64,000 bases of DNA from IMG/VR virus record IMGVR_UViG_3300042306_000227, positions 1 through 64,000 of that record. One strand, written 5' to 3'. Positions within the stretch are counted from its first letter, which is position 1. Each line of letters opens with the position of its first letter. Origin of the DNA: a virus. Both the position numbers and the translations under genes were made by a program. Below are positions 13,596 through 57,489 of this stretch, one piece after another. The notes beneath the pieces are model-generated. The model ran no database searches. It was not told the origin of the DNA and saw only the letters and a program-made list of their open reading frames with translations.

Positions 13596-13620
13596 TATCT
13601 TTGTAAAATAAAGAGTTGTA

Positions 13621-39053: not shown

Positions 39054-42000
39054 ATGTCTAAAAGATTCTTAAGTGGAATAAATGTAACTGGTTCAGCTGC
39101 CCTTAATACGGTGGCTGATGCAGGTTCTAATACAGACAAGTTTCTCGTATTAGACTCAAGTAATGTGGTGTCATATAGAACTGCTGCTGAATTATATGCT
39201 GACTTAGGAATAGGTTCTTTACCTTCTGGATATACTTCTACTTTAAAACATGAAGTAAAGGCTGGACAGACAATAAGCAAAGGACAAGCTGTTTATGTAT
39301 CATCTTCGGATGGTACTAATATGATTATATCAAAAGCATCAAATGTGTCAGAAGCAACTTCTTCTAAGACAATGGGATTGCTTGAAACTAGCTTGTCTAC
39401 TAATGGTAAAGGAAATGTAATTACAGAAGGTTTACTTGCAGGATTGAATACAAATGGAGCTACTGCTGGAGACCCAGTATGGTTAGGGGTAGATGGAGCT
39501 TTAATCTTTGGATTAGCCAACAAGCCTTACGCTCCTGCTCACTTGGTATTTATAGGTATCGTAACTAGAGCTAACGCTAATAACGGAGAAATCTTTGTTA
39601 AAGTGCAGAATGGGTTTGAGCTTAAAGAAATTCATGATATTGATTTAATTACAACTACTCCTATTGATGGTCATATATTAGGATACAACGGAACATTATG
39701 GGTAAATAAAACAATCGCAGGATGGTTGGGATATACTCCAGCAAATGATGCTTCAGTAGTTAAACTATCTGGCGCACAGACAGTTGGTGGTTTAAAAACA
39801 TTCAGTGCAAGTATTATTGCAAATATTGGTGTTTTATTAAAAAATGGTGCTGTATCAGCTTTAAATGGTTATACAGCAATAGGTGGTTCTTCAAGTAATG
39901 GGATTGAAATTGTTTTTAGTCCAGGTGGTTCTACTCAAAGTTTGTTATTTCAAACTTCTGCTGCTTATTCTTATACATTCCCTACTGCTACAGGTACTAT
40001 AGCATTAACAAGTGATTTAAATTCTTATGTTCCTAATACAAGAACACTTACGATTAACGGAACCACTTACGATTTAAGTGCAAATAGGTCTTGGACTATA
40101 TCTGCAAATCAGAATGCAAGAACAGAATACGAGTTTACTACGAATGGCTCTACAGCTACATATACGGCTACTTATTCTGTAGGGCAGGTTGATGTCTTTT
40201 ATAATGGTTCTAAATTATCATCTGCAGAGTTTACAGCTACAAATGGAACTAGCGTTACTTTAGCATTTACTCCTCCAAGTGGACAGGTTGTTGAAGTAGT
40301 AGCTTGGGAGACTGGTGGAGGTATTTCTAATAGCAGAACACTTACAATAAATGGTACTGCTTATGATTTATCTGCTAATAGAAGCTGGACAATTGATAAT
40401 GCAAGTTTAGGAGCACAGCCTCAGCTAAATGGTACTGGTTTTGTAAAAGTATCAGGAACAACTGTTTCTTATGACAATAGTACATACTTAACAACAAGTT
40501 CTGCTCTTAGTACTTACATGCCTTTATCTGGTGGTATTTTTACAGGAACTACAAGGATGGATGGAAGCGGTGGAACTACTCCATCAATTACAATGATTTT
40601 TAATTCAGGCATTAATAGACTATTAGCGCCTCTTTTAAGATTGTATGGAGCAACAAATGAAACTTCAAACTATGTTGAATTGTTTGGCTCTCTTGCAACA
40701 CAAAATAGAACAATACAATTACCTGATGCGAGTGGGACAATTGCACTAACATCAAACCTATCATCTTACTTACCATTATCTGGTGGTACGCTTACTGGTG
40801 CATTGAGCGGAACAAGTGCTACATTTTCAAGTACTGTAACTGGCTCTAGATTCAATTCAGGAGGTGCAGGATATAGAATAACAGCGTTTGGCACATTAAG
40901 TCAAACGGTATCAGGCGAAATGACTATTTTAGGTCATAATGTTGTAGCTGACCAATCTGCTGCAAACACCGTAACTGTGTTGAATGGTGGGTGGTATTCA
41001 TCTATGATTAAAATGTATTACAATGAAGGTATAACTTTCCATACAAGCGAAACAGTATTTTCTGCAAATGCTATCTATCCTATGGCATCTACCGAAAGAA
41101 TAAGGATAACAAACGGTGGGACTTTAGGCATTGCAACTTCAAGCCCTATCGGTGGTGTATTCAAATTACAAGTAGGTGATGGTAGCGCTGATACAAGAGC
41201 AATTATTGTTTCAAATCAAGTTTATCAATTAGGATTTAGAAATGGTGCTGGAAGTCCAGTGTTTTATGAGGGCAGTGATACAAGTGGTAATAAAATATTC
41301 TCAAATAATGCTGGAAGCGAGTTAATGAGAATTACAACTAATGGCCATTTTTGTATTGGTACGATAAGCCCTGTTAGCTTAGGTGGAAGTTTAGGTCTTA
41401 CAATGGGTACTACAACTTCAGGTAGGAATATAGTTTTATATTCATCTAGTAATGGGAACAATGGATTAATTCAATTTATAGATTTAAATGGCAATGATGG
41501 TTTGCAAATAGGTTCTAGCACAGTTGATAGTTATTTTTATAGCTATCGTGATAAACCAATGGAATTTTTTACTAATGGAACTAAAAGAGTAACAATACAA
41601 GGTGATGGCCAAACAAGATTTCAAAGTTCAATTATTCTTACAAATGGACAAATAAACTCTTTAGGTACAGGAGGTGGCGGACAGCCTATGTATTTAAACT
41701 TTGCTGGTAACGGAGCAGTATATGCAGGTAGCTCTTACGCAGTATTGTATGCTGGTTCTGATAGAAGAATTAAATCAAATATTGAAAACGCTGAACCTAC
41801 TCTTAACAAAATATTAGGCTTAACGCCAAGAACTTTTAAGTATAAGGAAAGACCAGAGTTTACTAACTACGGATTCATTGCTCAAGAGCTAGAGGAGATT
41901 ATGCCTGAATTAGTTAAAACTTCTGAAGGTATTACAATTTGTAATGGGGAAGAAATAGTAAATCAAAAAAGTATTGAAAGTTATGGTTTAGCTTGGGCAT

Positions 42001-42083
42001 CAATTTTAGTAAAGGCGATGCAAGAACAACAAGACCTAATAACTGAACTAACAGAAAAAGTAAACGCATTAGAGAATAAATAA
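39054..42083 (+). CDS. tail fibre with peptidase S74 intramolecular chaperone
   Basis: LPLSGGTLTG, ERIRIT..G repeats, 'SDRRIKSNI...YGFIAQEL...PELV' and C-terminal coiled coil. Confidence 0.88.
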   Translation: MSKRFLSGINVTGSAALNTVADAGSNTDKFLVLDSSNVVSYRTAAELYADLGIGSLPSGYTSTLKHEVKAGQTISKGQAVYVSSSDGTNMIISKASNVSEATSSKTMGLLETSLSTNGKGNVITEGLLAGLNTNGATAGDPVWLGVDGALIFGLANKPYAPAHLVFIGIVTRANANNGEIFVKVQNGFELKEIHDIDLITTTPIDGHILGYNGTLWVNKTIAGWLGYTPANDASVVKLSGAQTVGGLKTFSASIIANIGVLLKNGAVSALNGYTAIGGSSSNGIEIVFSPGGSTQSLLFQTSAAYSYTFPTATGTIALTSDLNSYVPNTRTLTINGTTYDLSANRSWTISANQNARTEYEFTTNGSTATYTATYSVGQVDVFYNGSKLSSAEFTATNGTSVTLAFTPPSGQVVEVVAWETGGGISNSRTLTINGTAYDLSANRSWTIDNASLGAQPQLNGTGFVKVSGTTVSYDNSTYLTTSSALSTYMPLSGGIFTGTTRMDGSGGTTPSITMIFNSGINRLLAPLLRLYGATNETSNYVELFGSLATQNRTIQLPDASGTIALTSNLSSYLPLSGGTLTGALSGTSATFSSTVTGSRFNSGGAGYRITAFGTLSQTVSGEMTILGHNVVADQSAANTVTVLNGGWYSSMIKMYYNEGITFHTSETVFSANAIYPMASTERIRITNGGTLGIATSSPIGGVFKLQVGDGSADTRAIIVSNQVYQLGFRNGAGSPVFYEGSDTSGNKIFSNNAGSELMRITTNGHFCIGTISPVSLGGSLGLTMGTTTSGRNIVLYSSSNGNNGLIQFIDLNGNDGLQIGSSTVDSYFYSYRDKPMEFFTNGTKRVTIQGDGQTRFQSSIILTNGQINSLGTGGGGQPMYLNFAGNGAVYAGSSYAVLYAGSDRRIKSNIENAEPTLNKILGLTPRTFKYKERPEFTNYGFIAQELEEIMPELVKTSEGITICNGEEIVNQKSIESYGLAWASILVKAMQEQQDLITELTEKVNALENK

Positions 42084-42098
42084 TAATAACTTTGTATA

Positions 42099-44768
42099 AT
42101 GGGTAAGACAAAAGATTTAGGACACTTAGCACACATAGTAGTATACGATGCAGAAAACCATATAACAGTTCCTGCTGGAATTACTATGCATACAAATCAG
42201 CTAGTAGCATCCCAAGCATGGGTAACTACAGCTTTGGGTTCTTATGCATTGTCATCTGCTCTAGGTTCATATGTGCCTACATCTAGGACTATAACAATAA
42301 ATGGTACAACATTTGATTTAAGCGCTAATAGAAGCTGGGATATAACTTCAATGATATATCCTGCTGCTGGTATTGCTTTGTCTACAGGTACAGGATGGGG
42401 TACTTCTATAACCAATAACTCAGGTAACTGGAATACAGCTTTTGGATGGGGTAATCACGCTTCAGCGGGGTACTTGACAGGAATAACTTCTACTCAAGTA
42501 ACGACAGCTTTAGGGTTTACTCCTGTAACAAATGCTAGAACTATTACAATTAATGGGACGGCATATGATTTGAGTACAGACAGGAGTTGGACTGTAAGTG
42601 GAACAGATAGTACTAAACTCCCCTTAGCTGGTGGCACAATGACTGGAAGTATTGAAATGGCTACTTCTGGAACTAGTTATATTAGAATGGGTAGATTTCC
42701 TAATTCAACATCAAATGGCGGTGAGGCTTGGATAGGTAGAGCTTCTGACAGAAGTGCTGGTACTATGACTGTTCAATTAGGTTCTGCAAATAGTTCATTT
42801 TTTGAAGTAGTTGATTATGGTTGGACTACAGTTACTTTAAAAGTAGGAATGAATGATTTTTCTTATAAGGGGAATGCTGTAATTCACGCTGGTAATATTG
42901 GTTCTCAATCAGTATCAACTGCAAGTGCTGCATCTAGTGCAACCTTTTTAACACAAGCTAATGCTACATGGGGAGCTAGACTACAAATAGGGGGTAATGG
43001 TGACCCAGGAGCTATTGCTAATATAGCTGTTGTTCAAGCTACAGATGGTAATTTACACATGGATAGCGGTACTGGCAAATCCATGTATTTAAATTATTAT
43101 CGTAATGGAGTAATATATTTAAATGGAGCTACTTATTATATTAGTTCTAATGGAGCTAATTATAATGGAACAGCTGCGAATGCAGGTAATGCTGATACAC
43201 TGGATGGATATCATGGTTCAAATTATCCTGGTAAAAATGGCAATACTTATTATCAAGTAGAAACATGGCTTCAATTAACAGGAGTTCATGGATTATACTG
43301 CCCTTCTGTAAATAATGCTCACTTATACCCAAATGATGCTTCTTATGGAGCTTGGAGAATATCAGGAACTAGAAATGGATGGAATGGTATTCATTTTGGA
43401 GGTGGTAATGGCATGACTCTAATGATGAATGAAACAGAGTTTGGATTTCATAGAGAAGGTATTGGATGGTCAGCTAGATTTACAAGCGGTACTGGTCATT
43501 TTAATATATCAGGTAGTGCAGCAAGTGCTAGTAGCGCTAGCTCAGCTACTTCTGCGGAATATTTCCCAACAGCATATGTTGGAGGTCAGCAAACTAATCC
43601 TCAAGTTTATTTTAATAATGGAATTGGCTTAAAGGCTGCAATGACAGGTGCTTGGTCTGTATGGTCTGATACATTATGGGTTAATGGATATTCTGGTGGT
43701 GATGTCCCTTGGATGTGCGCACTTCACTTTTTAAGAAATAGTGAACCAAGATTTGCTATTAGTGCGCAACAAAGGCAAAGTACAAGTTATGGCTCTTTTT
43801 ATGAAGTAATTACATCTTATAATATTGCATCTCAAACAGTTGCTAATTTATCAGGATTTAATAAGAGTGAACCAACATTTGCAAATGTGTATAATACTGG
43901 ATGGTTTAGAAACTATGCGGATAGTGGATTATATAACCAAGACTATGGATGTCATTTGGTTAGAAACGGTCAATCATCTCATGGTGCTTGGTCTATTTTT
44001 GGATATACTAAAGCTGGGTATATTGGTATGAACTTAAGAGACCCTCAGACTTACAATAATAACCTGATGTACGAGAATGGCAACGGAGGCATGTATACAG
44101 AAAATGCAAACGGTTGGCAATGGTATTATAACAGAGGTTCAAACTGTTTAGGTCTTGGAGGCTCTACTACATACAACTGGGTTAGAGCTGTTGTAAATGG
44201 TAAACTTAAAATTGAATCTGATTCTATCCATACAGGATGGGCATATTTTGATAGCAATCTTCAACTTGCTGGTGGTGGTAATATTCTTTACAACGAATAT
44301 AATCTTTGGTATGTATGGAGAAACTGGGGGGGATGGGGTGGAGAATGGATTAATCGTAATGGTGGTGATATGATTATGAACCTATATGCTGTTTATGCAG
44401 TGACAGGTAGCGTATCGGATATTAGGTACAAAAAAGATATTACACCTTTATCGTATGGATTGAATGAAATCATGCAAATGAATCCGATTAAGTATCATTA
44501 CAACTTACCTAAAGAATCAATGTTAGCTAACGACCCTGATTACTTCTTAGGATTTTCTGCACAAGAAATGCAAAATATTATTCCAGAAGCTGTTCACGAA
44601 AAGATGGGAGATTCATCAGAGACTATGACTGGCATGCTTGCAATCACTATGGATGAGATAATACCTGTATTAGTGAATGGCATAAAAGAGCAACAAGTAA
44701 TGATACGCAACCAAAATAATAAAATCAATAAACTAGAAGCACTAGTAAACCAACTATTAAATAATTAA
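42099..44768 (+). CDS. tail fibre with peptidase S74 chaperone
   Basis: 'NADTLDGYH', 'SDIRYKKDI...GFSAQEM...PEAV'. Confidence 0.88.
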   Translation: MGKTKDLGHLAHIVVYDAENHITVPAGITMHTNQLVASQAWVTTALGSYALSSALGSYVPTSRTITINGTTFDLSANRSWDITSMIYPAAGIALSTGTGWGTSITNNSGNWNTAFGWGNHASAGYLTGITSTQVTTALGFTPVTNARTITINGTAYDLSTDRSWTVSGTDSTKLPLAGGTMTGSIEMATSGTSYIRMGRFPNSTSNGGEAWIGRASDRSAGTMTVQLGSANSSFFEVVDYGWTTVTLKVGMNDFSYKGNAVIHAGNIGSQSVSTASAASSATFLTQANATWGARLQIGGNGDPGAIANIAVVQATDGNLHMDSGTGKSMYLNYYRNGVIYLNGATYYISSNGANYNGTAANAGNADTLDGYHGSNYPGKNGNTYYQVETWLQLTGVHGLYCPSVNNAHLYPNDASYGAWRISGTRNGWNGIHFGGGNGMTLMMNETEFGFHREGIGWSARFTSGTGHFNISGSAASASSASSATSAEYFPTAYVGGQQTNPQVYFNNGIGLKAAMTGAWSVWSDTLWVNGYSGGDVPWMCALHFLRNSEPRFAISAQQRQSTSYGSFYEVITSYNIASQTVANLSGFNKSEPTFANVYNTGWFRNYADSGLYNQDYGCHLVRNGQSSHGAWSIFGYTKAGYIGMNLRDPQTYNNNLMYENGNGGMYTENANGWQWYYNRGSNCLGLGGSTTYNWVRAVVNGKLKIESDSIHTGWAYFDSNLQLAGGGNILYNEYNLWYVWRNWGGWGGEWINRNGGDMIMNLYAVYAVTGSVSDIRYKKDITPLSYGLNEIMQMNPIKYHYNLPKESMLANDPDYFLGFSAQEMQNIIPEAVHEKMGDSSETMTGMLAITMDEIIPVLVNGIKEQQVMIRNQNNKINKLEALVNQLLNN

Positions 44769-44770
44769 TT

Positions 44771-45244
44771 ATGGCATACAAAATAAACAAAGAAATAGTA
44801 ACATCTAAGGGTGTTACATCTGAGGCTTACGTAAGAATATCTAAGTATGAAATTGATAAAGCTGGTGATGCTAGCTTTAAGATTGAAGTATTTTTAAATC
44901 AAGAATCTTCTACAACAGTAGATGGTGGATTGTTTAATCCTGCTTCTGCAACAATTGCAGATATAGGCCCTTATGTTGTAGTACCTCTTAAAAAAACTAT
45001 ACAAGTAGCTGTGCCAAATAAAAGAACAGAAGTGGTAGATGTCCCAGAAGAACTAGACGAGGAGGGTAATGTAATTAAGATGGCTACAAAACAATACGTT
45101 GAATTTGAAGGGGAAGATTTGGTTGATAGAACTGTACCTGATTTAACTCCTGTAGAAAATGGAACTGTTTTTGAGTTTGGTTATGCTAAATTAAGAGATG
45201 TATTAGTATCTTTGTACGGAGAGGAAAATATTGAAATTGTATAA
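44771..45244 (+). CDS. fibre-associated protein, paralogue A
   Basis: KGVTSEAYVRI...FEFGYAKL, shared with the next ORF. Confidence 0.7.
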   Translation: MAYKINKEIVTSKGVTSEAYVRISKYEIDKAGDASFKIEVFLNQESSTTVDGGLFNPASATIADIGPYVVVPLKKTIQVAVPNKRTEVVDVPEELDEEGNVIKMATKQYVEFEGEDLVDRTVPDLTPVENGTVFEFGYAKLRDVLVSLYGEENIEIV

Positions 45245-45262
45245 TATTTAAATAAACAAATA

Positions 45263-45748
45263 ATGGCATTAAAAATCACAACACAGATTGGTACAGACAA
45301 AGGTATCACATCTGAGGCTTACGTAAGAATCGCAGACTATCAAGTATCTAAGTACGGTAGTGCTAGCTTTAGAATTGAATTATTCCAAACTCAGGCTGAC
45401 TCAGTAGTTACTAATGGTATGATGTATCCGACCCCTTCTACTGGCGGCCAGGCTCGTAACCAACAAGTAGGTGATAACCTATGGGTTGCTATGACTAAAG
45501 AAGTAGAAGCTACAAGAACAGTACAAAGAAATGTAGAAGTAGTAACAGACGCTGTTTTAGATTCAGAGGGAGAGGTTATAACTCCTGCAAGTTCTACTTG
45601 GGAAATGCAAGATGTGGAAGAAACATACACAGCTACAGTTCCTGACTTGACTCCTTTAGAAGACGAGACTATCTTTGAATTCGGCTATGCTAAGCTTAAA
45701 GATAAATTAGTAGGATTATTTGGAGCTGAGAACGTAGTAGATTGTTAG
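45263..45748 (+). CDS. fibre-associated protein, paralogue B
   Basis: KGITSEAYVRI...FEFGYAKL. Confidence 0.7.
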   Translation: MALKITTQIGTDKGITSEAYVRIADYQVSKYGSASFRIELFQTQADSVVTNGMMYPTPSTGGQARNQQVGDNLWVAMTKEVEATRTVQRNVEVVTDAVLDSEGEVITPASSTWEMQDVEETYTATVPDLTPLEDETIFEFGYAKLKDKLVGLFGAENVVDC

Positions 45749-45771
45749 TATCTTTGCTTAAATAGTAAGCA

Positions 45772-48486
45772 ATGAGTTTAAAAGCAATAGATACTGGTTT
45801 TCTCAGGAATTTAGTTTCATACGATAATATAGGTAACATTTCGTTACCTGCTAGTTTGTCTATTTTTGTCAATAAAGAAGTAGCTACAAAAGAATACGTA
45901 GACGCTCAGAATAGTGGTCAGGTTCTACAATCTAGAACTTTGACTATTAATGGGGTTACTTACGACCTTTCAGCAAATAGAAGTTGGACTATAGATTCTA
46001 TGGTATATCCGTCAGCAGGTATCGCTTTATCAAGTGGTACTGGCTGGGGAGCTTCTATTACAAATAATTCAGCAAATTGGAATACTGCGTTTGGATGGGG
46101 TAATCATGCTTTAGCTGGATACCTTACATCATTTACAGAGACAGACCCCACAGTCCCATCTCATGTAAAGGCTATTACTACAACTAAGATAAGCGATTGG
46201 GATGCTGCATTTGGATGGGGGAACCATGCATCTGCAGGTTATGAAATTGCGTCTAACAAATCAAATAATGCTGCTTTAGGAAACTCTAGTACGTTATATC
46301 CAACGCAAGCAGCAGTAAAATCTTATGTTGATTCTGCTGTGACTGGTGGAGTAAACATACAAGGTGATTGGAATGCAAATACCAATACTCCTAATATATC
46401 AGGCACTACTACTACTGGATTTACATGGAGGGTTTCCGTAGCTGGTTCAACTAATTTAGGTGGAATTACTACTTGGAATGTTAATGACTTAGCTGTTAAA
46501 ACAGCAGCTGGTTGGATTAAAATTGATAATAGTTCATCTGTTATTTCTGTATATGGTAGACAAGGTGTTGTTGTAGCTAATGCTGGGGATTATAATACAT
46601 CTCAAGTTACCGAAGCTGTTGGTAGTTTATACTTTACTACAGCTAGAGCTAGAGCGTCATTTAGCGCAGGCACAAATGTATCAATAGATGCAAATGGTGT
46701 AATTAGCTCAGTAAATACAACTTATAATAATTTTACCAGAACGGTTGCAGGCTTAGTGCCAAACCCAGGAGGCTCTTCAACTACTCGTTATTTAAGAGAG
46801 GATGGTACATGGGTAATACCACCTGATACAATTGTAACATCATTAGCATGGACTAGCATTACTAGTAGACCAACTAAATTATCTGACTTTACAAATGACT
46901 TAGGAAACTATGGTTCATTTTTAACAGCATACACTGACACATTAGCTACTGTTACAAATAGAGGAAATTCTACAGCACAAAATATAGTTTTTAGTAATGG
47001 AAGGAAGGGGCTTGTAGGTGTTTATGATGCTGCACAGACTCAAGCAATATTTGCTATGGGTGCTGCTTATGTTTTAGCAGATGGAGGTGCTTCAAATAAT
47101 ATAGGAAATCTTTACGGACTAGCTTGGTCATATAATCCAGACTACGGAGGCGCAGGTAATAATCCGCAATCAAAAGCAGGGTTAAATCATCAGTTATTGT
47201 TGATGCAAGCAGGTGTTACTACCGCAGCAATAGGTTCTGGTATATGGACAAGTGGAAATATATCTGCAGCTAATTTTAGTGGTTCACATAGTGGTACTTC
47301 TTCAGGAACAAATACAGGAGACCAAGTAAATATTAGTGGTAATGCTGCGACAGCGACGTCAGCTACATCAGCTACAATATCAACTTTTTTGTCATCTCCT
47401 GATGGAGATAGATTAGCAGGCAGTAAATTACCTAATGGTACTGTAAGAGCAATTAGGTTTGATTTTGCAAATGCAAACTCTATTACAGGTGCAACAGGAA
47501 ATTATGCAGGTGTAATGACTTATTCTCCTTGGGATGGTACTGTAGCTTCTACTGGAGACTCTTCATATCAATTAGCATTTATTAATGAAACAGGTGTTAA
47601 CGCAAGTGGAGCCCCTGGCCTTAGATTTAGAAATGGTATTGACTCAACTTGGAATGGTTGGACATCAATAATAACATCTTCTAATATAGGTTCTTATACA
47701 GCAGGTGGTGTTGCTTGGGGTAATGTGTCTGGAAGACCAACGGCATTAAGTCAATTTACAAATGATTTAGGGAACTATGGAGGCTGGGTTGTTAGAAGTG
47801 GCGACAGCATGAGTGGTAGACTTACTATTAATAGTGGGGGGAATAATTTGCCATTGCATGTTCTTTCTGTAGAACCTTATATACAACTTCAGGCAACAGG
47901 AGAAACGAATTCTACATCTTTTAGAATGTATCCTACAGGTGGTTTTAATGCTTCAATAGGTAATTACGCTACAGGGGAATTGTGCCTTGTTGCCGCAAAC
48001 AGCGAGGCTGTCTTTATTAACAGCAATAGCATACGTGTAAATAAATATAGATTTAATGGGAATGGCACATTATCTGGTAATGGATTAGTTGAAATTGTTG
48101 ATATGGCTAATGTTGGAATGGCAACACAAGCAAATTCATATAGATGGTATAGTGCTAATGCTGCTAATATATTAATGTCATTAAATACATCAGGACATCT
48201 TACTGCTAACGCATTCTTTGAAGCATCAGATATTAGATACAAAAATGTAACCGAGACTAATCCAGATATTAGTGGGCTTGGTATTGATGTGATTAAATTT
48301 ACTAGACACGGAAGTGATATAGTAAGATATGGTTATTCTGCACAGCAAGTGCAATCAGTTATACCAGATGCTGTAGAAGGTAAAGATGTACTAACTGTAA
48401 ACTATATGGATGTTCATACTTTAAAGATTGCATCTTTAGAAAGAAGAGTTAAAGAATTAGAAGAAAGACTAAAAAGCACATTATAA
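45772..48486 (+). CDS. tail fibre with peptidase S74 chaperone
   Basis: ETDPTVP, 'SDIRYKNV...YGYSAQQVQSVIPDAV'. Confidence 0.85.
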   Translation: MSLKAIDTGFLRNLVSYDNIGNISLPASLSIFVNKEVATKEYVDAQNSGQVLQSRTLTINGVTYDLSANRSWTIDSMVYPSAGIALSSGTGWGASITNNSANWNTAFGWGNHALAGYLTSFTETDPTVPSHVKAITTTKISDWDAAFGWGNHASAGYEIASNKSNNAALGNSSTLYPTQAAVKSYVDSAVTGGVNIQGDWNANTNTPNISGTTTTGFTWRVSVAGSTNLGGITTWNVNDLAVKTAAGWIKIDNSSSVISVYGRQGVVVANAGDYNTSQVTEAVGSLYFTTARARASFSAGTNVSIDANGVISSVNTTYNNFTRTVAGLVPNPGGSSTTRYLREDGTWVIPPDTIVTSLAWTSITSRPTKLSDFTNDLGNYGSFLTAYTDTLATVTNRGNSTAQNIVFSNGRKGLVGVYDAAQTQAIFAMGAAYVLADGGASNNIGNLYGLAWSYNPDYGGAGNNPQSKAGLNHQLLLMQAGVTTAAIGSGIWTSGNISAANFSGSHSGTSSGTNTGDQVNISGNAATATSATSATISTFLSSPDGDRLAGSKLPNGTVRAIRFDFANANSITGATGNYAGVMTYSPWDGTVASTGDSSYQLAFINETGVNASGAPGLRFRNGIDSTWNGWTSIITSSNIGSYTAGGVAWGNVSGRPTALSQFTNDLGNYGGWVVRSGDSMSGRLTINSGGNNLPLHVLSVEPYIQLQATGETNSTSFRMYPTGGFNASIGNYATGELCLVAANSEAVFINSNSIRVNKYRFNGNGTLSGNGLVEIVDMANVGMATQANSYRWYSANAANILMSLNTSGHLTANAFFEASDIRYKNVTETNPDISGLGIDVIKFTRHGSDIVRYGYSAQQVQSVIPDAVEGKDVLTVNYMDVHTLKIASLERRVKELEERLKSTL

Positions 48487-49611: not shown

Positions 49612-50070
49612 ATGAAACTAACGTTAGGTCAAATTGTAACACTATTTGAAGAATTAAATGGCCGTCTACTTAACAGAGAGACTGGCGAAAGAAGCAAAGG
49701 TGTGTTATCTCACAAGCTAAGCATCAGAGCTAAGTACTTGTTAAACACTGAGTTAAACAAGGCTGTAGCTGAAGAAGTTAAGTCTTATGAAGAAGCACGT
49801 CTTGAAATCTTTAAAGAATTAGGTAATCAAGAAGGTGAATCTTATGTAGTGGCTCCTGAAAATCAGGAAGAACTTATTAAGAGAATCCAAGAATTGGAGT
49901 CTATTGAAAAAACAATAGCTGTACCTAAATTAAAGGTTGAGGAGTTATTTAGCATTGAAACTGATGACTATTTCCCAATCTTACTTGAGGTATTATTAGG
50001 CAAGAAGGAAGAAGCTAAGGCTGAACCTACTGCAGCAGTTGAAGAAGCAACTGTTGTCCCTATGAACTAG
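49612..50070 (+). CDS. helical hypothetical protein (post-tail)
   Basis: 152 aa; promoter TTTG-N20-TAACTTTG at 49561-49592. Confidence 0.7.
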   Translation: MKLTLGQIVTLFEELNGRLLNRETGERSKGVLSHKLSIRAKYLLNTELNKAVAEEVKSYEEARLEIFKELGNQEGESYVVAPENQEELIKRIQELESIEKTIAVPKLKVEELFSIETDDYFPILLEVLLGKKEEAKAEPTAAVEEATVVPMN

Positions 50071-50097: not shown

Positions 50098-50124
50098 CGA
50101 GCCCTGTTTCTACAGGGCTTTTTT
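50098..50124 (+). terminator. intrinsic terminator (identical to 18814-18840)
   Basis: CGAGCCCTGTTTCTACAGGGCTTTTTT. Confidence 0.8.
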
Positions 50125-50143
50125 ATTTTAGTACCTTTGCATT

Positions 50144-50608
50144 ATGAAGTACTTATTATATTTATTGTTAATATTGAGCACATCTAGTATGGCTCAAGAT
50201 GTGACTATATCTGTCCAAAACAGCATTAAATTAGGTGATTTGGCAGGTAATAGAAAAATAGAGTTTGGTGTAGCTAATATCATTGAAGAGATAATCCAAG
50301 AGAAAGGATACTCAATTAACCCAAAATCTAAAAATATTATCTTTGCCGAGTTGATTTATATGGATGTAGTGAAGACTAAAAGCAATCTATCAGTATTCCA
50401 TAAAGACAATACAGATGTCGTGATAAGAATCAAGGGGTATATTTCCAAAGACGGAAGTAAAAGCAAGCCAATCTTGGTAGAAGGTAGCGCATCCGAGGTG
50501 TCAACATCAACAATACTTGTCGGAACAGACGGCAAGTTCAATCAACAAAATTTAACAACTGCAATAAAAAAGGCTTGCTATGAACTTATTGAGAAAATTA
50601 ATCCTTAG
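50144..50608 (+). CDS. secreted CsgG-like protein (short paralogue)
   Basis: Signal peptide ending SMA-Q; GVANI and KFNQ..TTAIKKA shared with the 53667 ORF. Confidence 0.6.
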   Translation: MKYLLYLLLILSTSSMAQDVTISVQNSIKLGDLAGNRKIEFGVANIIEEIIQEKGYSINPKSKNIIFAELIYMDVVKTKSNLSVFHKDNTDVVIRIKGYISKDGSKSKPILVEGSASEVSTSTILVGTDGKFNQQNLTTAIKKACYELIEKINP

Positions 50609-52226
50609 TCTTGTCACTATTTTTGGAATATTTGTGACAAATGCGCAGATTCCTACAATATATTTAGAAAAGTCTAATATAACTAAGAACATAAAGGACA
50701 CGTCTATCTTAAAGGGAGACACTGTTGATATGGTGGTTATGTATAAGGAGGAACTATCTTCTACCAGAACGCTATACTTTGACTTTCAGTATAACTATAG
50801 AACATTTACTATATTAGGTGTAACTAGTTTTAGTGGAGATAGTAGTGCTATGCCTGCAAATGCTACAATGAGTATTCAGAATAGCTTCCATCCAGGATTT
50901 ACCTATCAAAGAACAGCTCAAAATACAACAACAAATGGTTCACAGAACTATAACTATGCTAACTATACGTATTCACCAAGCAGCAATAATGCTATCCAAA
51001 GAATCTATACTACAGTTACTTCAAATAGTAATCTACGTAATGGGAAATATATCAGGATACGTATTAAGGTAAACGCAACTACAGCTGGAACAGCTTATGA
51101 TAGTTTGTATATGAACTTTGTATCTGGCTGGAAATCAGATGGTACTTATATTGATACGTATATGCCTCTACCTAAAAGCACATTCATAACACTAGACGCT
51201 AATGCTAATACTTTGGTTACTGGTAATATATATAAAAGTCCTTCTGTTCAGACTAATATCAAGTTTACCGACTCCGCTTCAGGAATATCTACTTTATTAT
51301 ATCCTGATGTAAATGGTGTTTTTAAAGCTTCTACGGAGCTTGCATCAAATAGAACATACAAAGTATCAGTTGGTATAGATAGTATCGCTAGTGTAGCTAA
51401 AAATGCTATTACGGTATCAGATGCTACAGCCGCCTTAAATGAGTTTGGTTCTGTTAACCTAAATGGCACTTTTAATAAGACTAACCTAAAGACAGGTGCT
51501 GCTTGGCTAGCTGCTGATGCTAACTATAATGGTTCTTTTGATGCTGCCGACCCATACTTGATATTGGCTCATGTGGCCAATACGCTGACAATGGTTCCTA
51601 ATATATACACATATAAAAGAGCTGATTTTAGTAAAGATACTTTACCAGTTCAGAATTTTATCTATTTCCGTACTACTACTGCCAATCAAGCATTAGATTT
51701 AAACTATCTAATTGCAGGTGATATTAATAGAAGCCATAGCTCACAGGTTGTAGCCACAGATGGAACAATCCAATCATTTTCATTGGTTAATACTCCAATA
51801 GTAAAAAAAGCTGTTTTAGTAAGCCTAGAAAATGCTGTGATTGAGTCTGATAATATATCTATACCTATGAATATCAATTCAGACGGATTAAGCTTATGCG
51901 GATTGCAGTTTGAGTTTGCATATGATGCAACTAAAATTCAGTTGCAAGAAATAAAGGCCAATACAAACGCATCTTGGCTAAACTTCTATACAAACGAGAA
52001 TGGGTATGTTAAGTTTGGTGGTATAGATAAGACTTTAAAAGAGCCTATATCTGGAACAACGATTCCATTTACAATTAAATTCAAGGCATTAACGCCTGGT
52101 GTTGATATAAATACTAATGTATGGGTAACAGATAATATGGATGCGTCTGATAACAGAGGTAATCAAGTTGGTATTAAGTTAAACACTGCACAGATTCGTT
52201 TAATCGGTATAAATAATTTTAAATAA
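50580..52226 (+). CDS. secreted cohesin- and dockerin-domain protein
   Basis: Signal peptide NA-Q; 'FDFQYN' and 'GLQFEFAYD' cohesin-like strands; dockerin-like 'ITVSDA', 'ADANYNGSFDAAD', 'GDIN'. Confidence 0.65.
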   Translation: MNLLRKLILSLVTIFGIFVTNAQIPTIYLEKSNITKNIKDTSILKGDTVDMVVMYKEELSSTRTLYFDFQYNYRTFTILGVTSFSGDSSAMPANATMSIQNSFHPGFTYQRTAQNTTTNGSQNYNYANYTYSPSSNNAIQRIYTTVTSNSNLRNGKYIRIRIKVNATTAGTAYDSLYMNFVSGWKSDGTYIDTYMPLPKSTFITLDANANTLVTGNIYKSPSVQTNIKFTDSASGISTLLYPDVNGVFKASTELASNRTYKVSVGIDSIASVAKNAITVSDATAALNEFGSVNLNGTFNKTNLKTGAAWLAADANYNGSFDAADPYLILAHVANTLTMVPNIYTYKRADFSKDTLPVQNFIYFRTTTANQALDLNYLIAGDINRSHSSQVVATDGTIQSFSLVNTPIVKKAVLVSLENAVIESDNISIPMNINSDGLSLCGLQFEFAYDATKIQLQEIKANTNASWLNFYTNENGYVKFGGIDKTLKEPISGTTIPFTIKFKALTPGVDINTNVWVTDNMDASDNRGNQVGIKLNTAQIRLIGINNFK

Positions 52227-52579
52227 TGAAAAGAATCAGTATCATCACATGCTTAGTATTGCTTGTAGTATCATGCAAAAAAATACAATATTATCCAGAG
52301 CAACAAGCTAAAACACCTGAAAAACAGGGGTATGTTAATGTGTCTCCTGTACCTACATTAGGTCAAATCACAATGAGTTTTAACCTACAACCATCTATCA
52401 AGTATAATGTTACAATCAAGGATATGAGCGGTAAAGTTTACAAATCTTATGGGGTAAGCTCAATAGATGGCTTATTGGTAAAGCAGGATAACCTAACTGG
52501 ATTAGCAAGTGGAACATATGACTTAATTTTGATGAATATAAATGGCTCAGAAACTAGAACCCCAATAATTATAAAATAA
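52226..52579 (+). CDS. lipoprotein consisting of a T9SS type A CTD-like domain
   Basis: Lipobox LVVS-C; 'VSPVPT...VTIKDMSGKV...LTGLASGTYDLIL...TPIIIK'. Confidence 0.65.
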   Translation: MKRISIITCLVLLVVSCKKIQYYPEQQAKTPEKQGYVNVSPVPTLGQITMSFNLQPSIKYNVTIKDMSGKVYKSYGVSSIDGLLVKQDNLTGLASGTYDLILMNINGSETRTPIIIK

Positions 52580-52585
52580 AATACA

Positions 52586-52885
52586 ATGGCAGAAGAACAA
52601 GAAAGCACAGGTAGTTCTATGAAAAATGTTATCATAGGATTCATTAGCACAATCACTCTAGGAGTAGGTGGTTGGATTACAACAAAATTAACAGGAGGAG
52701 ATGAGAAAGAAACCCCAACACAAACAGCGGCTCCAGTCATTAATATCAATCAAACGCAACAACAAGCTGCAGGAGGTGGTAAGACTGTTATCATTAAAGA
52801 AAAGGCGTCAGAACCTGCAAAGCCAGCTGCAACTCCTAAGAAAAAAGAGGGCGATGATTTTAAGGAAGAGGCTCCTAAATGGTAA
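52586..52885 (+). CDS. single-TM protein with low-complexity tail
   Basis: N-terminal TM and a Q/A/P/K-rich C-terminus. Confidence 0.7.
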   Translation: MAEEQESTGSSMKNVIIGFISTITLGVGGWITTKLTGGDEKETPTQTAAPVININQTQQQAAGGGKTVIIKEKASEPAKPAATPKKKEGDDFKEEAPKW

Positions 52886-52888
52886 TAT

Positions 52889-53032
52889 ATGGCAAAGAAG
52901 ACGTCAAAGCCTAAAGCGAAACGAAGTATTCGCTCAGGTGTTAAAAAGAGTAAATTAGTAAAACAAAATCAAGAAGTAATATATAACGTATGGACAACGC
53001 TAAACAGCCAACAGGTTTTAAAGAACTTTTAA
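52889..53032 (+). CDS. small basic protein (47 aa)
   Basis: Not in the track: MAKKTSKPKAKRSIRSGVKKSKLVKQNQEV...; overlaps the next gene by 43 nt. Confidence 0.45.
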   Translation: MAKKTSKPKAKRSIRSGVKKSKLVKQNQEVIYNVWTTLNSQQVLKNF

Positions 53033-53553
53033 ACGCAATGATGGAACGCAGATGGTATATTACCGCTGCTGTTCTTGGTGGGTTTATTTTAATTATCGCA
53101 GGGATATTTGTAGCAGTATCTAACAATGCTTCTATGGCAGGGGAATGGAAAGAGTTATTAATGTTATTATTGGGTGCCTTTATTGGTAGCTATGGTAAGA
53201 TTATAGACTACTGGTTCTCTGATACAGACAAGGATAAAATGTTAGTACAGAAGATGGATGAAGAAGATGGTGTTTCTATGTCTCACACAAATGACATGAA
53301 AGAAACTAACAAGCCATTTGGCCCTACCATTCCTGATGCATTTGTTCAAGGAGCTGCTGCAGCTAGAGATTTAGCTGTTACAGAAAACAGACAAAACTTT
53401 GAACTTAAAAGAGACCAACAAGAACACGAACAAGAGATGGAGAAGTTAGAGTTTGAATACCAAGCACACAGACAATGTGAGCATGAGTGGGGAGATTCTG
53501 ACGGAGACGGAGAACTTGAGTGTCAAAAGTGTGGATTATTGAAAGATAAATAA
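52990..53553 (+). CDS. two-TM membrane protein with coiled coil and C-terminal metal-binding motif
   Basis: Two TMs, 'IIDYWF', C-terminal CEHEWGDSDGDGELECQKC. Confidence 0.7.
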   Translation: MDNAKQPTGFKELLNAMMERRWYITAAVLGGFILIIAGIFVAVSNNASMAGEWKELLMLLLGAFIGSYGKIIDYWFSDTDKDKMLVQKMDEEDGVSMSHTNDMKETNKPFGPTIPDAFVQGAAAARDLAVTENRQNFELKRDQQEHEQEMEKLEFEYQAHRQCEHEWGDSDGDGELECQKCGLLKDK

Positions 53554-53560
53554 AAACATA

Positions 53561-53665
53561 AGTCAGAAACCGCAAAATCTGACTCATATATCAATCAATC
53601 TTGAGCCGTTTATCAATCGTATTCGGCTCATTTTTGAGCGATAAGTATAATTTAAATGAGCGATA
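53561..53665. repeat. palindrome and direct-repeat array
   Basis: AGTCAGA-N10-TCTGACT, TGAGCCG-N15-CGGCTCA, TGAGCGATA twice with a 22-bp period. Confidence 0.7.
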
Positions 53666-53666
53666 T

Positions 53667-54389
53667 ATGAAAATTATAAAATCTTGTTGTACCATAATTA
53701 TAATCCTTTGCTTTATTAATGGTCAAGCTCAGGTAGCGACAACTAAGACAGAGAACTATAAAGCTAGTTTTGAGACTAAGATTGACATCAGTCAGTACAT
53801 GGACTATGATGGGCCGACTATACCAATTCAAATACTTAAATGCGGAATAAATGACGAAATGTATGAAATGTATCCAGAACTTAAGGAAAAGAGGGTTGGT
53901 TTGGGCGTGGCAAACATCTCTATGGAGTACCTGGAAAACCTCAATCGCTTCACTTTCACGGAGGACAAGACTGAGATTAAGAATAGAATGGTTAAACAAT
54001 TCCAGGCCTCTCAAGCAGGAATTTCTCAAGATAAGTTGGATGGAAGAGGAAAGATTAGACTAGCACATTACTTTGTTGAGATTGAGTGCTATGATTATTC
54101 TGTTTCAGAAGATGAAGAGATTAGGGTAAAAGATGGCATTAAGGAGACTGTTGTCACAAGAATAGGATTACAGGTAAGATTTACGGATGCGCAGACAGGT
54201 GAAATCATAGCTGCATCTGGATTGGGAGAAGCTAAAACTACACGAGAAGCAAGCCTATTGAATGACGAGAATCTTAGTGAAGTTAAATTTAATCAGTCAA
54301 CGATAGGAACTGCAACAAAGAAAGCACTAGATATTGCGTGTGCTCGCATCCTATCAAGAATGATTAAAAAGAATGTATTCCCTAAATAA
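53667..54389 (+). CDS. CsgG/HfaB-family outer-membrane assembly/transport protein
   Basis: Start at ATG 53667, signal peptide QA-Q; 'YLENLNRFTFTE', 'LQVRFTDAQTGEII' CsgG-like motifs. Confidence 0.7.
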   Translation: MKIIKSCCTIIIILCFINGQAQVATTKTENYKASFETKIDISQYMDYDGPTIPIQILKCGINDEMYEMYPELKEKRVGLGVANISMEYLENLNRFTFTEDKTEIKNRMVKQFQASQAGISQDKLDGRGKIRLAHYFVEIECYDYSVSEDEEIRVKDGIKETVVTRIGLQVRFTDAQTGEIIAASGLGEAKTTREASLLNDENLSEVKFNQSTIGTATKKALDIACARILSRMIKKNVFPK

Positions 54390-55611
54390 AACACTTTTTC
54401 GTACGATATTCTGTACACTTTTGACACTTTCATTGACGAGTGCAAAAGCGCAGATACTTACAAGTACATTTATAGACCCATGTAGCAAGAAGGTCACAGT
54501 CTTTGTAGTGCCAATTCAAGGTACTACAATTGTGTTTATGGGTAAGTCTAAATACATAACAGCTCAGGATGTAAAGTCAGGTGCTTTAATGACTTGGGTA
54601 AATCAAGTATACGCAGAGTATTCAGCGCCATGCCCTGTTACACAACTTACTCAACAATTAACACAGCAAACGGTAACAAATTCAGTTTCAGCAGCAGTAA
54701 GTTCAGCAGCATCAAGTGCCGCTGCGAGTGCTGCTAGCAGTGTAAGTGTTCCAACTCCTGCTCCTGCTCCTGCGCCATCTTCTGCACCTTCTAGCCAACC
54801 AACTTCCTCTCAGAGTGATGGTAGCTCTAGCTCTAGCTCGTCTCAGAATGATGGTAGTTCTAGCGAAAGCAGTTCTGAGTCCTCTGAAAGTAAATCTGAG
54901 AGTAAATCCGAGGATAAAAAAGAAGAAAAGAAAGAAGAGAAGAAAGAGGAAAAGAAAAAGTCTTCCGCAAAGGCAGGACAAACCCCATTGATTTTTTCGT
55001 CTGATTTGAGTGCGGTTCAGCAGTTTCAAGGTGACTTTAATTTAATGGCAAATTTAGGCGTTTCTAGAGCATCTATGGCAGGAGACGTGTCTTACGGCTC
55101 TACATTGACAATCTTCTCAAATTTAAGACAATTTGCCCTATCTACAAGGTATTCTAAGATGGATATTCAGAATGGGACTTTATGTGGCGTAGGGACAACT
55201 TCTTACACAATGGCATATAATGATGGAGGCATCATACATATACTAGGTAAATCATATGTAATGTCCCATAAGTCATACATTTATGGCTATGCCTTGACTA
55301 TTATTAATACATCTATCCCATTTGAGGCTGTAAAACAACAATTCTGGACTTCTTCTATAGTGTTATTTGGCATGAAGCCATACGTTTACAGCAAAAGATT
55401 GACTATAACACCAGAGGTTTTTTTAATGTCTAACCCACTGAGTTATACAAGTAAATCAAAGGATTTGACATCTATGAGTCAATTAAGCTACATATTAGGC
55501 TCATCATTTGACATAGCATTGTCTAAGAGATTTAGACTTGCAACTAATATTAAATACATGGGGCCGCTTCATACAATTGGATTGCAGTTAGGAACAAAGT
55601 TTAACCTATAG
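54373..55611 (+). CDS. outer-membrane beta-barrel protein with Ser/Ala/Pro and EKKE linker
   Basis: Signal peptide AKA-Q, low-complexity linker, ~200 aa of alternating beta-strands ending GTKFNL. Confidence 0.65.
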   Translation: MYSLNKTLFRTIFCTLLTLSLTSAKAQILTSTFIDPCSKKVTVFVVPIQGTTIVFMGKSKYITAQDVKSGALMTWVNQVYAEYSAPCPVTQLTQQLTQQTVTNSVSAAVSSAASSAAASAASSVSVPTPAPAPAPSSAPSSQPTSSQSDGSSSSSSSQNDGSSSESSSESSESKSESKSEDKKEEKKEEKKEEKKKSSAKAGQTPLIFSSDLSAVQQFQGDFNLMANLGVSRASMAGDVSYGSTLTIFSNLRQFALSTRYSKMDIQNGTLCGVGTTSYTMAYNDGGIIHILGKSYVMSHKSYIYGYALTIINTSIPFEAVKQQFWTSSIVLFGMKPYVYSKRLTITPEVFLMSNPLSYTSKSKDLTSMSQLSYILGSSFDIALSKRFRLATNIKYMGPLHTIGLQLGTKFNL

Positions 55612-55851: not shown

Positions 55852-56454
55852 ATGAAAAAGATATTACAGGGTGCTGTATTGGTGATAGTTGTCGGTCTTA
55901 TATTCTCAAAGATGACAGGGGTTAAAAACCCATTCTCGCCTAAGATAAAATATATTGCAGGTAAACCTTACGAGGTTATTAAGCATGAGATAGATACTGT
56001 TGACATTATTAAGACTAAGGTGATTACCAAACAAGGTAAGGACATCTACCACGATACGACAATCTTCGTGCAAGTCCCAATGAATGTAGACACATTAGAA
56101 ATTATTAAAATGTATTTCGCCAAGAATGTATACAAGGATACCTTACGTTTACCTGACAGCTTAGGATATGTTGTACTATTGGACACCATTAGTAAGAATA
56201 CGATTGAGTCTAGGATGTTCACAGCTAATGTGAAGCAAAGAACTATTAAAGAGACTACCATTGTTAAAGAGCTACCTAAGACCAAGTTATTTTGGGGTGT
56301 AGGAGCGTCATTTGACAAGGTAAACTTTGTAAACAACGTACAGGTAAATCTACTTTTAAATACAAAGTGTGATAAGCTATACAATGTAGGAGCAGGAATT
56401 GACATCAATAAGACACCGTTTGTTAACGCATCTATTTACTGGAAAATAAAATAA
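55852..56454 (+). CDS. membrane-anchored lysis-module protein (spanin-like candidate)
   Basis: N-terminal TM, DT-rich stalk, C-terminal beta-strands ending YWKIK; upstream of holin and endolysin. Confidence 0.55.
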   Translation: MKKILQGAVLVIVVGLIFSKMTGVKNPFSPKIKYIAGKPYEVIKHEIDTVDIIKTKVITKQGKDIYHDTTIFVQVPMNVDTLEIIKMYFAKNVYKDTLRLPDSLGYVVLLDTISKNTIESRMFTANVKQRTIKETTIVKELPKTKLFWGVGASFDKVNFVNNVQVNLLLNTKCDKLYNVGAGIDINKTPFVNASIYWKIK

Positions 56455-56456
56455 TT

Positions 56457-56702
56457 ATGAAAGATTTTTTACTTAGAATGTTCAGCGATAAGTCTGACAT
56501 AAATCAAAAGGCTGTGTTAGGATTTGTATCGTTTCTGTTAATGGCTATATATGCCCTAACAGATGTGGTTACAGGAGCAATAGGAATTACGTTTGTTATT
56601 GAGCCTATAGTATTTAACGGATTGATGTACACAGCTTTGACTATGTGTGGCATCACAGGTGTAGAGGCTGTATTTGGTAACAAGAACATAAAAGATAAAT
56701 AA
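56457..56702 (+). CDS. putative holin
   Basis: 81 aa, two TMs, basic C-terminus, coupled to the endolysin. Confidence 0.65.
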   Translation: MKDFLLRMFSDKSDINQKAVLGFVSFLLMAIYALTDVVTGAIGITFVIEPIVFNGLMYTALTMCGITGVEAVFGNKNIKDK

Positions 56703-57301
56703 TGAATCTAGATAGATTAAAAGGTCACATCCCAGACTCAGTAATAAATCAGATACCAGAAGTGTCTACTAAATTTGGTGTTAATACTCCACAGAGATTA
56801 GCTCATTTCTTAGCTCAAACAGGTCATGAAAGTGGTGGGTTCAGAGTAACAACAGAGAATTTAAACTATAGCGCAAAAGGTTTGTGTGGTATTTTTAAGA
56901 AATACTTTACACCAGAAAGCGCACAAGAATATCAACGTAAGCCAGAAAAGATTGCTAATATTGTGTACGCAAACAGAATGGGTAATGGTAATCAGGCTAG
57001 TGGAGATGGGTTTAAGTTTCGTGGTAGAGGTTATATCCAATTAACAGGTAAAACTAACTACCAAGCATTTGATAAAACAGTAGAAGATAACATTGAAGCA
57101 AACCCTGATTTGGTTGCTACAAAATATCCTTTATTATCAGCTGCATGGTTTTGGAGTAAGAACGGATTAAATGCAATAGCTGATACAGGTGCAGGAGAAG
57201 ATGTGGTAACTAAAATTACAAAAAGGGTTAACGGAGGCACTATCGGTCTTGCTGATAGAATAGCTCATTTTAAAGAATATTATAATCTATTAAAAGCTTA
57301 A
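56702..57301 (+). CDS. glycoside hydrolase family 19 endolysin
   Basis: AHFLAQTGHESGGF, ENLNYS, FRGRGYIQLTG, SAAWFW, VNGGTIGLADR. Confidence 0.93.
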   Translation: MNLDRLKGHIPDSVINQIPEVSTKFGVNTPQRLAHFLAQTGHESGGFRVTTENLNYSAKGLCGIFKKYFTPESAQEYQRKPEKIANIVYANRMGNGNQASGDGFKFRGRGYIQLTGKTNYQAFDKTVEDNIEANPDLVATKYPLLSAAWFWSKNGLNAIADTGAGEDVVTKITKRVNGGTIGLADRIAHFKEYYNLLKA

Positions 57302-57303
57302 CA

Positions 57304-57489
57304 ATGAGTCAAGGAGTATCAGAAGCATCAGGAATGGTAGGTGTGCCAGCAACCATATTAACATGGCTTAATTACATGAACATAATGACTATGACCCCTG
57401 TGTTACAATTCTTAGTAACATTGTTATCCCTTGTGTGGCTAGTCATACAGATAGGAGGATGGGTTAGTAAAAAACTTAAAAAGAAGTAA
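57304..57489 (+). CDS. small membrane protein (holin-like)
   Basis: 61 aa, hydrophobic, KKLKKK tail. Confidence 0.6.
   Translation: MSQGVSEASGMVGVPATILTWLNYMNIMTMTPVLQFLVTLLSLVWLVIQIGGWVSKKLKKK

Follow-up and report, generated by a model that had tools for sequence, protein, structure and literature searches.

A phage cassette of exported proteins that probably rebuilds the envelope of the infected Bacteroidota cell

The first 64 kb of a viral record in IMG/VR (IMGVR_UViG_3300042306_000227, 73,267 bp long), referred to here as the window, come from a phage of Flavobacterium-type bacteria found in lake water and include a cassette of eight tightly packed open reading frames (ORFs), designated A to H, which lies between three large tail-fibre genes and the lysis genes (Table 1). 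The question raised by this locus is what a phage gains from a set of genes whose products are nearly all exported or placed in a membrane. The most likely role is remodelling of the envelope or surface of the host cell during infection, and its main rival is a role in lysis. New here are a rule of one sorting domain for each cohesin-ended protein, the coupling of B with C, the uncoupling of this cargo from a slowly evolving core, and a case against a CsgG-type channel.

Seven of the eight products are envelope-targeted, as had been proposed in an earlier reading of the DNA made without database searches (the sequence-only reading). A, B, G and H begin with hydrophobic leaders that end in Ala followed by Gln, the cleavage sites being read directly from the sequence, and these ends fit the 'Q-rule' of Bacteroidetes signal peptidase I substrates (PMC5837995). 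C has the lipobox V-V-S-C, and D and F have hydrophobic spans, whereas E has none.

The C-terminal part of B (residues 424-525) matches the Pfam cohesin family (PF00963) with an E-value of 2.8e-7 and 31.2 bits against a cut-off of 24.1. It is preceded by a dockerin-like module (residues ~250-400, nucleotides 51327-51779) that is common to all B-like proteins of other cassettes, some of which carry C-type lectin or PA14 heads on the same module. The profile of the module (alignment A4) matches the solved dockerins 8ajy_B (E-value 2.6e-6) and 2ccl_B (E-value 1.3e-3), and the match runs through one canonical calcium-loop repeat, accompanied by a degenerate first repeat and a conserved third D-V-N-x-S loop. 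For the N-terminal residues 22-260, the ESM Atlas gave scores of at most 0.87, a lead only, to cohesin, CarboxypepD_reg and dockerin-type clusters.

C was compared with the sorting domains that direct proteins to the type IX secretion system (T9SS). It scores 23.6 bits with TIGR04183 (T9SS type A sorting domain), where the NCBIfam cut-off is 23, and 21.8 bits with Pfam Por_Secre_tail (PF18962), below the cut-off of 27. Four of 26 members of the C family match a sorting domain at an E-value of 0.01 or less, and the family aligned with fused T9SS tails at 87.6% probability in hhalign (E-value 3.5e-6). C is thus a borderline member of the T9SS sorting-domain family, as judged by sequence comparison. 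The sequence-only reading, which took C for a lipoprotein resembling a T9SS C-terminal domain, is upheld by the lipobox and the NCBIfam model; the Pfam score is below its threshold.

The relation of C to the cohesin-ended proteins became apparent from other loci. A scan of viral contigs with G gave 492 matching stretches; 487 of them were confirmed as relatives, and the best 80 were kept. Hidden Markov models built from the alignments were run over the ORFs of 88 loci, the window's included, and matches were found in 79. Small C-type lipoproteins, one or two per locus, are present in 68 of these 79 loci and missing from 11. In all 11 lipoprotein-free loci, the cohesin-ended protein is 629-634 amino acids (aa) long, which is ~85 residues longer, and ends in Por_Secre_tail (above the Pfam cut-off in nine). 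Protein gp015 of immuto, a cultured Flavobacterium phage, ends in the same domain (E-value 2.4e-8). When loci with the cohesin gene at their edge are set aside, the ratio of cohesin-ended proteins to lipoproteins is 1:1 in 25 loci, 2:2 in 13, 1:0 in 11 (all with fused tails) and 1:2 in a single locus. These counts show that each cohesin-ended protein is matched by one predicted sorting domain, either on a separate lipoprotein or as a fused T9SS tail. Given the fused tails in the 11 sister loci and in immuto, the host T9SS is indicated as the export route for the cohesin-ended proteins.

Mantel tests on pairwise distances in 21 loci, from which shared ancestry was not removed, gave a rho of 0.81 between the cohesin domain and C. 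The corresponding value for the cohesin domain and G is 0.17, and the values for G, D, H or A lie at 0.15-0.25. The matched counts, the homology of C to the fused tails and the contrast between 0.81 and 0.15-0.25 together argue that B and C are exchanged and evolve together, and thus show, at the level of sequence, one exchangeable, co-evolving unit that is uncoupled from a slow core of D, F and G. A complex prediction for the B cohesin domain with mature C scored 0.00, below the mark; its controls were not run, and it has no bearing on binding.

Conservation of the individual genes was counted in 85 loci, which exclude the window's own locus and two repeat-contig loci, and many of which are cut by contig ends. 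D is present in 74 of them, H in 72, B in 70, F in 61 and A in 45. Compared with the window, median identity decreases from 81% for G, the most conserved cassette gene, through 66% (F), 50% (D), 46% (A), 36% (H) and 32% (C) to 29% for B, and it is this range that distinguishes a slow core from a fast cargo. The sequence-only reading had staked its case in advance on finding the genes together elsewhere; their order is colinear in 76 of the 85 loci.

In a set of 50,697 phage records, G is confined to four, all of them Flavobacterium immuto phages (55.7% identity), and a DNA-level search of the same set with the cassette gave no match. Immuto is a 160-kb myovirus in which the cassette is embedded in the replication genes, with the endolysin ~8 kb away; this argues that the cassette moves as a unit between unrelated phages. 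Its carriers include the 73-kb phage of the window, this myovirus and jumbo phages of 198-245 kb. A search of bacterial genome contigs with G found one short contig from a metagenome-assembled genome, and no bacterial locus carrying the cassette emerged from it. Additional genes accompany the cassette elsewhere, namely those for a TonB-dependent-receptor-like barrel with a lipoprotein of 398-400 aa, a class-3 lipase, a secreted non-specific endonuclease, a family 2 glycosyltransferase and a metallophosphoesterase (L025 8651-12327; L044 2437-5894; L025 6694-7431; L022 5025-5657; L029 6716-8227).

Within the core, G of the window on its own matched no Pfam (E-value up to 1), NCBIfam or PHROG family, and A, D, E and F gave nothing above chance in Pfam, PHROGs and NCBIfam. 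Single-sequence searches of G and A against solved structures yielded chance-level matches only. Relatives of G are numerous: 5,022 were found at an E-value of 0.001 or less in a collection of 5.8 billion proteins clustered at 90% identity, the 120 listed having 'hypothetical protein' as their sole name and no Pfam domain, and 216 among 1.84 billion representatives against which G was scored. In an alignment of G with 34 mostly full-length relatives (alignment A1, 35 sequences), Pfam CsgG (PF03783) is matched by 21 sequences, with a best E-value of 3.7e-23, and LpoB by eight; the family profile matches E. coli CsgG (E-value 6.9e-5). The AlphaFold2 model of G (predicted local distance difference test score, pLDDT, 84.7) matches CsgG (4uv2) in Foldseek with an E-value of 1.6e-7, and in VIA-align with a Z of 13.4 and a root-mean-square deviation (rmsd) of 2.9 Å over 174 residues, followed by PelC (Z 10.0) and then FlgT and LptE (Z ~8-9). 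The best viral model for G is a phage protein named CsgG. At ~30% identity, relatives bear the name CsgG/HfaB family protein; one comes from a Nitrospinota genome, and the contigs that carry members of its cluster reach 423 kb. On these comparisons G is a diverged branch of the CsgG/HfaB family; membership is placed at this level because G alone is unmatched while 21 of the 35 aligned sequences and the family profile do match.

The alignment of A (A2) matched that of the G family in hhalign with 91% probability and an E-value of 9.3e-7 over 126 columns, and relatives of A weakly match Pfam Lipoprotein_16 (12 of 23) and TraT (4 of 23). By this relation A is a shortened paralogue of G, with a predicted small alpha/beta fold like that of CsgG and LptE. 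The earlier description of 'two CsgG-like proteins' therefore holds at the level of fold or superfamily.

H comprises an N-terminal domain with two Cys residues (~27-95), a stalk (~96-200) and a C-terminal barrel (206-411). This build is conserved in 27 aligned relatives, with a domain of ~65 residues, two conserved Cys and a stalk of 100-200 residues. The stalk is of low complexity (stretches of Ala/Ser, Ser, Ser-Glu-Lys and Glu-Lys), and all matches of H in Pfam, PHROGs and NCBIfam are confined to it. The AlphaFold2 model has a barrel of ~12 strands, in agreement with the beta-barrel of the sequence-only reading, with blocks of pLDDT ~70-90, and the stalk below 50. In Foldseek the barrel resembles FapF (E-value 5.1e-8) and NalP (E-value 6.9e-7), and in VIA-align to EspP (Z 20.3, rmsd 3.5 Å over 231 residues), NalP (19.9), KdgM (17.5) and FapF (17.2). 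The small domain may point into the periplasm, the arrangement of FapF, or away from the cell, that of autotransporters. The distances of A and of the H barrel correlate across the 21 loci (rho 0.73; partial value 0.60 with control for five other parts) even though five genes separate the two, a hint that A and H work together.

D has its hydrophobic span at residues 15-33, followed by a Pro/Lys-rich tail with two short conserved beta-like motifs, and its final residue W99 is invariant in an alignment of 25 relatives. In the alignment of 23 relatives of F, 39 columns are invariant, almost all of them between residues 10 and 94. This conserved N-terminal part (~9-95) has one strong hydrophobic span (24-42) and one weaker, and the variable tail ends in a Cys/His knuckle. 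For E, relatives were found by tblastn in 15 of the 85 loci, with no family match.

These properties can be brought together in the following reading. The host Sec pathway would send the cassette products, made late in infection, into every envelope layer of the Bacteroidota cell. D and F in the inner membrane, G and A at the periplasmic or outer-membrane face, and H as a 12-strand outer-membrane barrel presenting a small domain on a long flexible stalk would form an envelope-spanning platform. The exchangeable unit would consist of B, with its dockerin-like module and terminal cohesin, and C, a lipid-anchored sorting domain, B being brought to the outer membrane, or retained there, through the host T9SS, the lipid anchor of C, or both. 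Contacts between cohesin and dockerin modules would then build a phage-made coat or scaffold that alters the surface of the cell; it might, for instance, mask receptors, keep other phages out or make cells adhere to each other. That a Sec-exported cassette of a slow core and an exchangeable B-C unit forms such a platform and coat is given about an even chance.

Several points weigh against this reading. The Pfam dockerin model (Dockerin_1, PF00404) found no match in B at an E-value of 1 or less, and none at 0.01 or less among the 31 + 16 cassette proteins of other loci; because this model is unmatched, 'dockerin-like' is the fair term. Of the cohesin-dockerin pairing advanced earlier, the cohesin stands above its cut-off and the module resembles solved dockerins, and it is in Pfam that the dockerin half fails. 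B of the window ends just after its cohesin domain, with no fused sorting domain. The coupling of B with C, measured on distances that still contain shared ancestry, may come from that ancestry or from adjacency without physical contact. In 25 of the 85 loci the cassette encloses a holin-like gene (J), placed between D/F and G, and in 31 of 85 the fetched flanks include an endolysin; these ties fit a lysis role as well as late expression. Finally, the difference in conservation between G and B points to a conserved host target of G that the reading does not name.

A more specific version is possible but doubtful. Here D, F, a ring of G and A, and H would make up a trans-envelope machine that plants B, as an exchangeable adhesin scaffold, on the cell surface by means of the lipidated C acting in trans, or that carries out an outer-membrane step of lysis. 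As part of the same joint claim, and equally tentative, a lipid-anchored sorting domain acting in trans would represent a previously unknown use or bypass of the T9SS.

Somewhat unlikely is a device for lysis as such, in which D, F, G and H, perhaps with A, breach the outer membrane or time the breach, B and C being accessory. Such a device would, with the same low likelihood, replace spanins or regulate the holin. Besides the two ties given above, it is favoured by the position of the cassette directly upstream of the lysis genes in the window, by the very conserved membrane hairpin region of F, which resembles small holins, and by the coverage of both membranes, since D is placed in the inner membrane with a periplasmic tail and H in the outer membrane with a long stalk. 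No lipoprotein/coiled-coil spanin pair was seen among the ORFs beside the endolysin, and a phage CsgG/CsgF pair has been proposed as a lysis regulator by the Melnitz authors (PMC9004378). Against this, the immuto block lies among replication genes away from the endolysin, and in two complete jumbo phages G is ~110 kb from gene I, the gene that adjoins the lysis genes in the window. The lectin, PA14, lipase, nuclease and TonB-receptor-like genes of the same cassettes suggest surface or nutrient biology instead. No spanin family or coiled coil was detected in the cassette either, in searches that included no coiled-coil predictor or spanin library.

According to the sequence-only reading, G and A form an oligomeric outer-membrane pore of the CsgG type that secretes B, which is improbable in the light of the present comparisons. 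CsgG is the closest solved structure to G, ahead of PelC, its Pfam family is matched by the relatives of G, and B of the window, having no fused T9SS tail, needs some route if it leaves the periplasm. G, in contrast, has no lipobox Cys, a residue present in 27 of the 35 aligned relatives. Its long hairpin (residues 135-174) is six residues shorter than the first membrane hairpin of CsgG in the HMMER alignment and has a charged tip with a run of acidic and basic residues. The alignment stops before the second hairpin of CsgG, with 53 residues remaining in G against 84 in CsgG, and in the monomer model the strand at 180-195 is followed only by a short helix where CsgG has that hairpin. The model thus leans towards the absence of a second membrane hairpin from G. 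None of the CsgE, CsgF and curlin families was found for any cassette ORF in Pfam and NCBIfam at an E-value of 1 or less. CsgG passes unfolded polypeptide, as described in PMC7029224 and PMC9004378, whereas the sister cohesin proteins carry T9SS tails, and the evolution of G is uncoupled from that of B. The folds that the sequence-only reading named are all present in the cassette; the export of the cohesin protein through such a pore, which it proposed, is not supported.

It is hardly credible that the products are ordinary virion or virion-assembly proteins following the tail-fibre genes: the cassette does stand at the end of the structural block, and the H stalk has weak PHROG matches to head proteins (E-value 4.3e-4), but these are confined to its low-complexity stretch, the cassette is away from structural genes in immuto and has its own terminator and promoter-like boundary in the window, and a Sec leader, a lipobox or a membrane span marks seven of the products, whereas virions are not expected to contain proteins with Sec leaders.

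The preferred reading, remodelling of the envelope and surface, was compared with known systems. The nearest published case is that of the pelagimyophages of the HTVC008M group and the Methylophilales phage Melnitz, with CsgG/CsgF 'curli-like' clusters which, according to PMC7029224 and PMC9004378, are absent from the host's own repertoire and have proposed roles in 'sibling capture', uptake and lysis timing. Like the cassette, these clusters place a CsgG-family protein in a small operon of exported proteins. They differ in having recognisable CsgG and CsgF similar to the proteobacterial ones, while in the cassette no CsgF was found and G is missed by Pfam. The partners here are a stalked barrel, a cohesin/dockerin protein, a lipoprotein related to T9SS tails and two inner-membrane proteins, and the hosts are Bacteroidota. 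The curli channel of E. coli (4uv2, 4uv3) has the same fold as G at ~10-13% identity, and differs in the lipobox, the longer first hairpin and a second membrane hairpin that is not evident in the model of G.

The ring or plug lipoproteins of the PelC/PelB and LptE/LptD pairs belong to the same small alpha/beta class as G (PelC Z 10.0, LptE Z ~8), and the presence of the barrel gene H in the same operon, with its correlation to A, adds to this likeness. The likeness is by fold only, and H with its 12 strands is far smaller than LptD. Type Va autotransporters (EspP, NalP) and FapF share with H a C-terminal barrel of ~12 strands after a linker and an N-terminal domain. In H, the 'passenger' has ~65 residues, the linker is a low-complexity stalk of ~100 residues, the autotransporter beta-domain family is not listed by Pfam for H at an E-value of 1 or less, and no pore or plug helix is modelled with confidence.

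B resembles cellulosomal and non-cellulosomal cohesin-dockerin assemblies in having a Pfam cohesin and an EF-hand-type repeat that matches solved dockerins, but has a single canonical repeat, both modules in one protein and no enzymes, and sister cassettes add the lectin or PA14 heads. With T9SS type A cargo, the resemblance is in the sister cassettes, where the cohesin proteins end in a true sorting domain to which C is homologous; in the window the cargo does not end in this domain, which makes up a lipoprotein of its own. We know of no description of a T9SS sorting domain as a separate lipoprotein, though no literature search was directed at it. No paper describing this cassette was found in the literature, subscription journals being outside the scope of the search.

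The features of the cassette and of its surroundings are given in Table 1.

Table 1. Features of the cassette and of the adjacent lysis region in the window
Feature	Coordinates	Strand	Description
Terminator-like hairpin	50099-50120	+	9-pair stem with 5 G-C pairs, then T-run; closes preceding gene 49612-50070
TACCTTTG	50132-50139	+	Bacteroidota-type promoter-like motif, 4 nucleotides upstream of the ATG of A
A	50144-50608	+	154 aa, exported; shortened G paralogue
B	50580-52226	+	548 aa, exported; N-terminal half of no assigned fold, dockerin-like module, C-terminal cohesin
C	52226-52579	+	117-aa lipoprotein; borderline homologue of the T9SS type A sorting domain
D	52586-52885	+	99 aa, single-span membrane protein
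E	52889-53032	+	Basic ORF of 47 aa that runs into the start of F; doubtful as a gene
F	52990-53553	+	187-aa inner-membrane protein
G	53667-54389 (frame open from 53601)	+	240 aa, exported; CsgG fold
H	54373-55611	+	412 aa, exported; stalked beta-barrel
Gene I	55852-56454	+	200 aa; N-terminal membrane anchor, beta-rich C-terminal end
J	56457-56702	+	Holin-like, hydrophobic spans; context, outside the cassette in the window
K	56702-57301	+	Glycoside hydrolase family 19 (GH19) endolysin; phrog_181 endolysin, E-value 4.3e-72; Glyco_hydro_19

The eight ORFs, which follow a terminator-like hairpin as the sequence-only reading had it, overlap or are separated by a few bases; the start of C, for instance, overlaps the stop of B by one nucleotide. 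For G, position 53667 is the likely start because the leader and all homologues begin there. The region holds six terminator-like sites, against 3.3 +/- 1.7 in shuffled sequences. In one lake-metagenome contig, the start of G seems to follow directly on the end of B, with 52227-53696 (C to F) left out. This join was set aside: its shorter side has 23 letters, perhaps of another phage, and the contigs of two runs are related DNA only.

The promoter that had been assigned to the cassette is a candidate. As a motif class, TANNTTTG is no more frequent in the window than expected (89 against 85.4 +/- 8.7), so the candidate rests on its position and on the conservation of GTACCTTTG, which is retained upstream of A in five close relatives (L002, L004, L005, L008 and L084). 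Given the spacing between TACCTTTG and the ATG of A, a leaderless or nearly leaderless message would result. A scan for sigma-70 promoters was uninformative (37 sites against 34.3 +/- 6.3 in shuffles). At the place of GTACCTTTG in the window and its close relatives, TATTTAT stands 10-40 nucleotides upstream of A in 13 of 24 loci inspected (L022, L035, L036, L047, L050, L054, L058, L062, L067-L070 and L073). This heptamer, possibly an element of phage late promoters, shows no enrichment at the locus of the window itself (5 found against 5.8 expected).

On the + strand, the genes of the window run from terminase and portal (11571-15918) through virion proteins, tail fibres and the cassette to the endolysin. 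Matches to tail-fibre families at 39054-48486, together with the endolysin, establish that the cassette sits between tail fibres and lysis genes, the placement given by the sequence-only reading. A 61-aa ORF directly after the endolysin (57304-57489, +) has a strong hydrophobic span and no family match, and may be a second holin or an antiholin. GC content is ~35% across the window with no shift at the cassette, and no tRNA genes were found in the window. Near-identical DNA is present in lake-water metagenomes from many studies; the 20 rows of sequencing runs with the stretch are all lake or freshwater metagenomes, with no RNA dataset among them.

Gene I, which follows H, was considered as a ninth member and rejected. 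A scan of viral contigs with gene I matched 96 stretches, of which 93 were confirmed as relatives and the best 80 kept; 66 of these 80 loci have no G within 9 kb. All 13 loci closest to the window phage by gene I carry G and H, and in these 13 closest relatives gene I lies between H and the holin-like gene. In jumbo phages it precedes genes that by appearance are those for terminase and portal, with no G within 9 kb. An H-like barrel gene is found directly upstream of gene I in 14 of 67 loci lacking the rest of the cassette, one of which (L159) has a match to G at its cut edge.

With 5,022 relatives of G and 487 of 492 viral contig stretches confirmed, the cassette counts among the more common gene sets without an explanation in Bacteroidota phages of fresh and sea water. 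Should it re-dress the surface of the cell, it would be relevant to superinfection, aggregation and the flow of carbon in lakes; should it act in lysis, it would close a gap in our picture of how the outer membrane of Bacteroidota is opened by phages. The split-off sorting domain gives direct access to T9SS recognition, and the exchangeable cohesin unit could become a tool for surface display. These questions are made testable by a cultivable carrier, phage immuto on Flavobacterium sp. LMO8.

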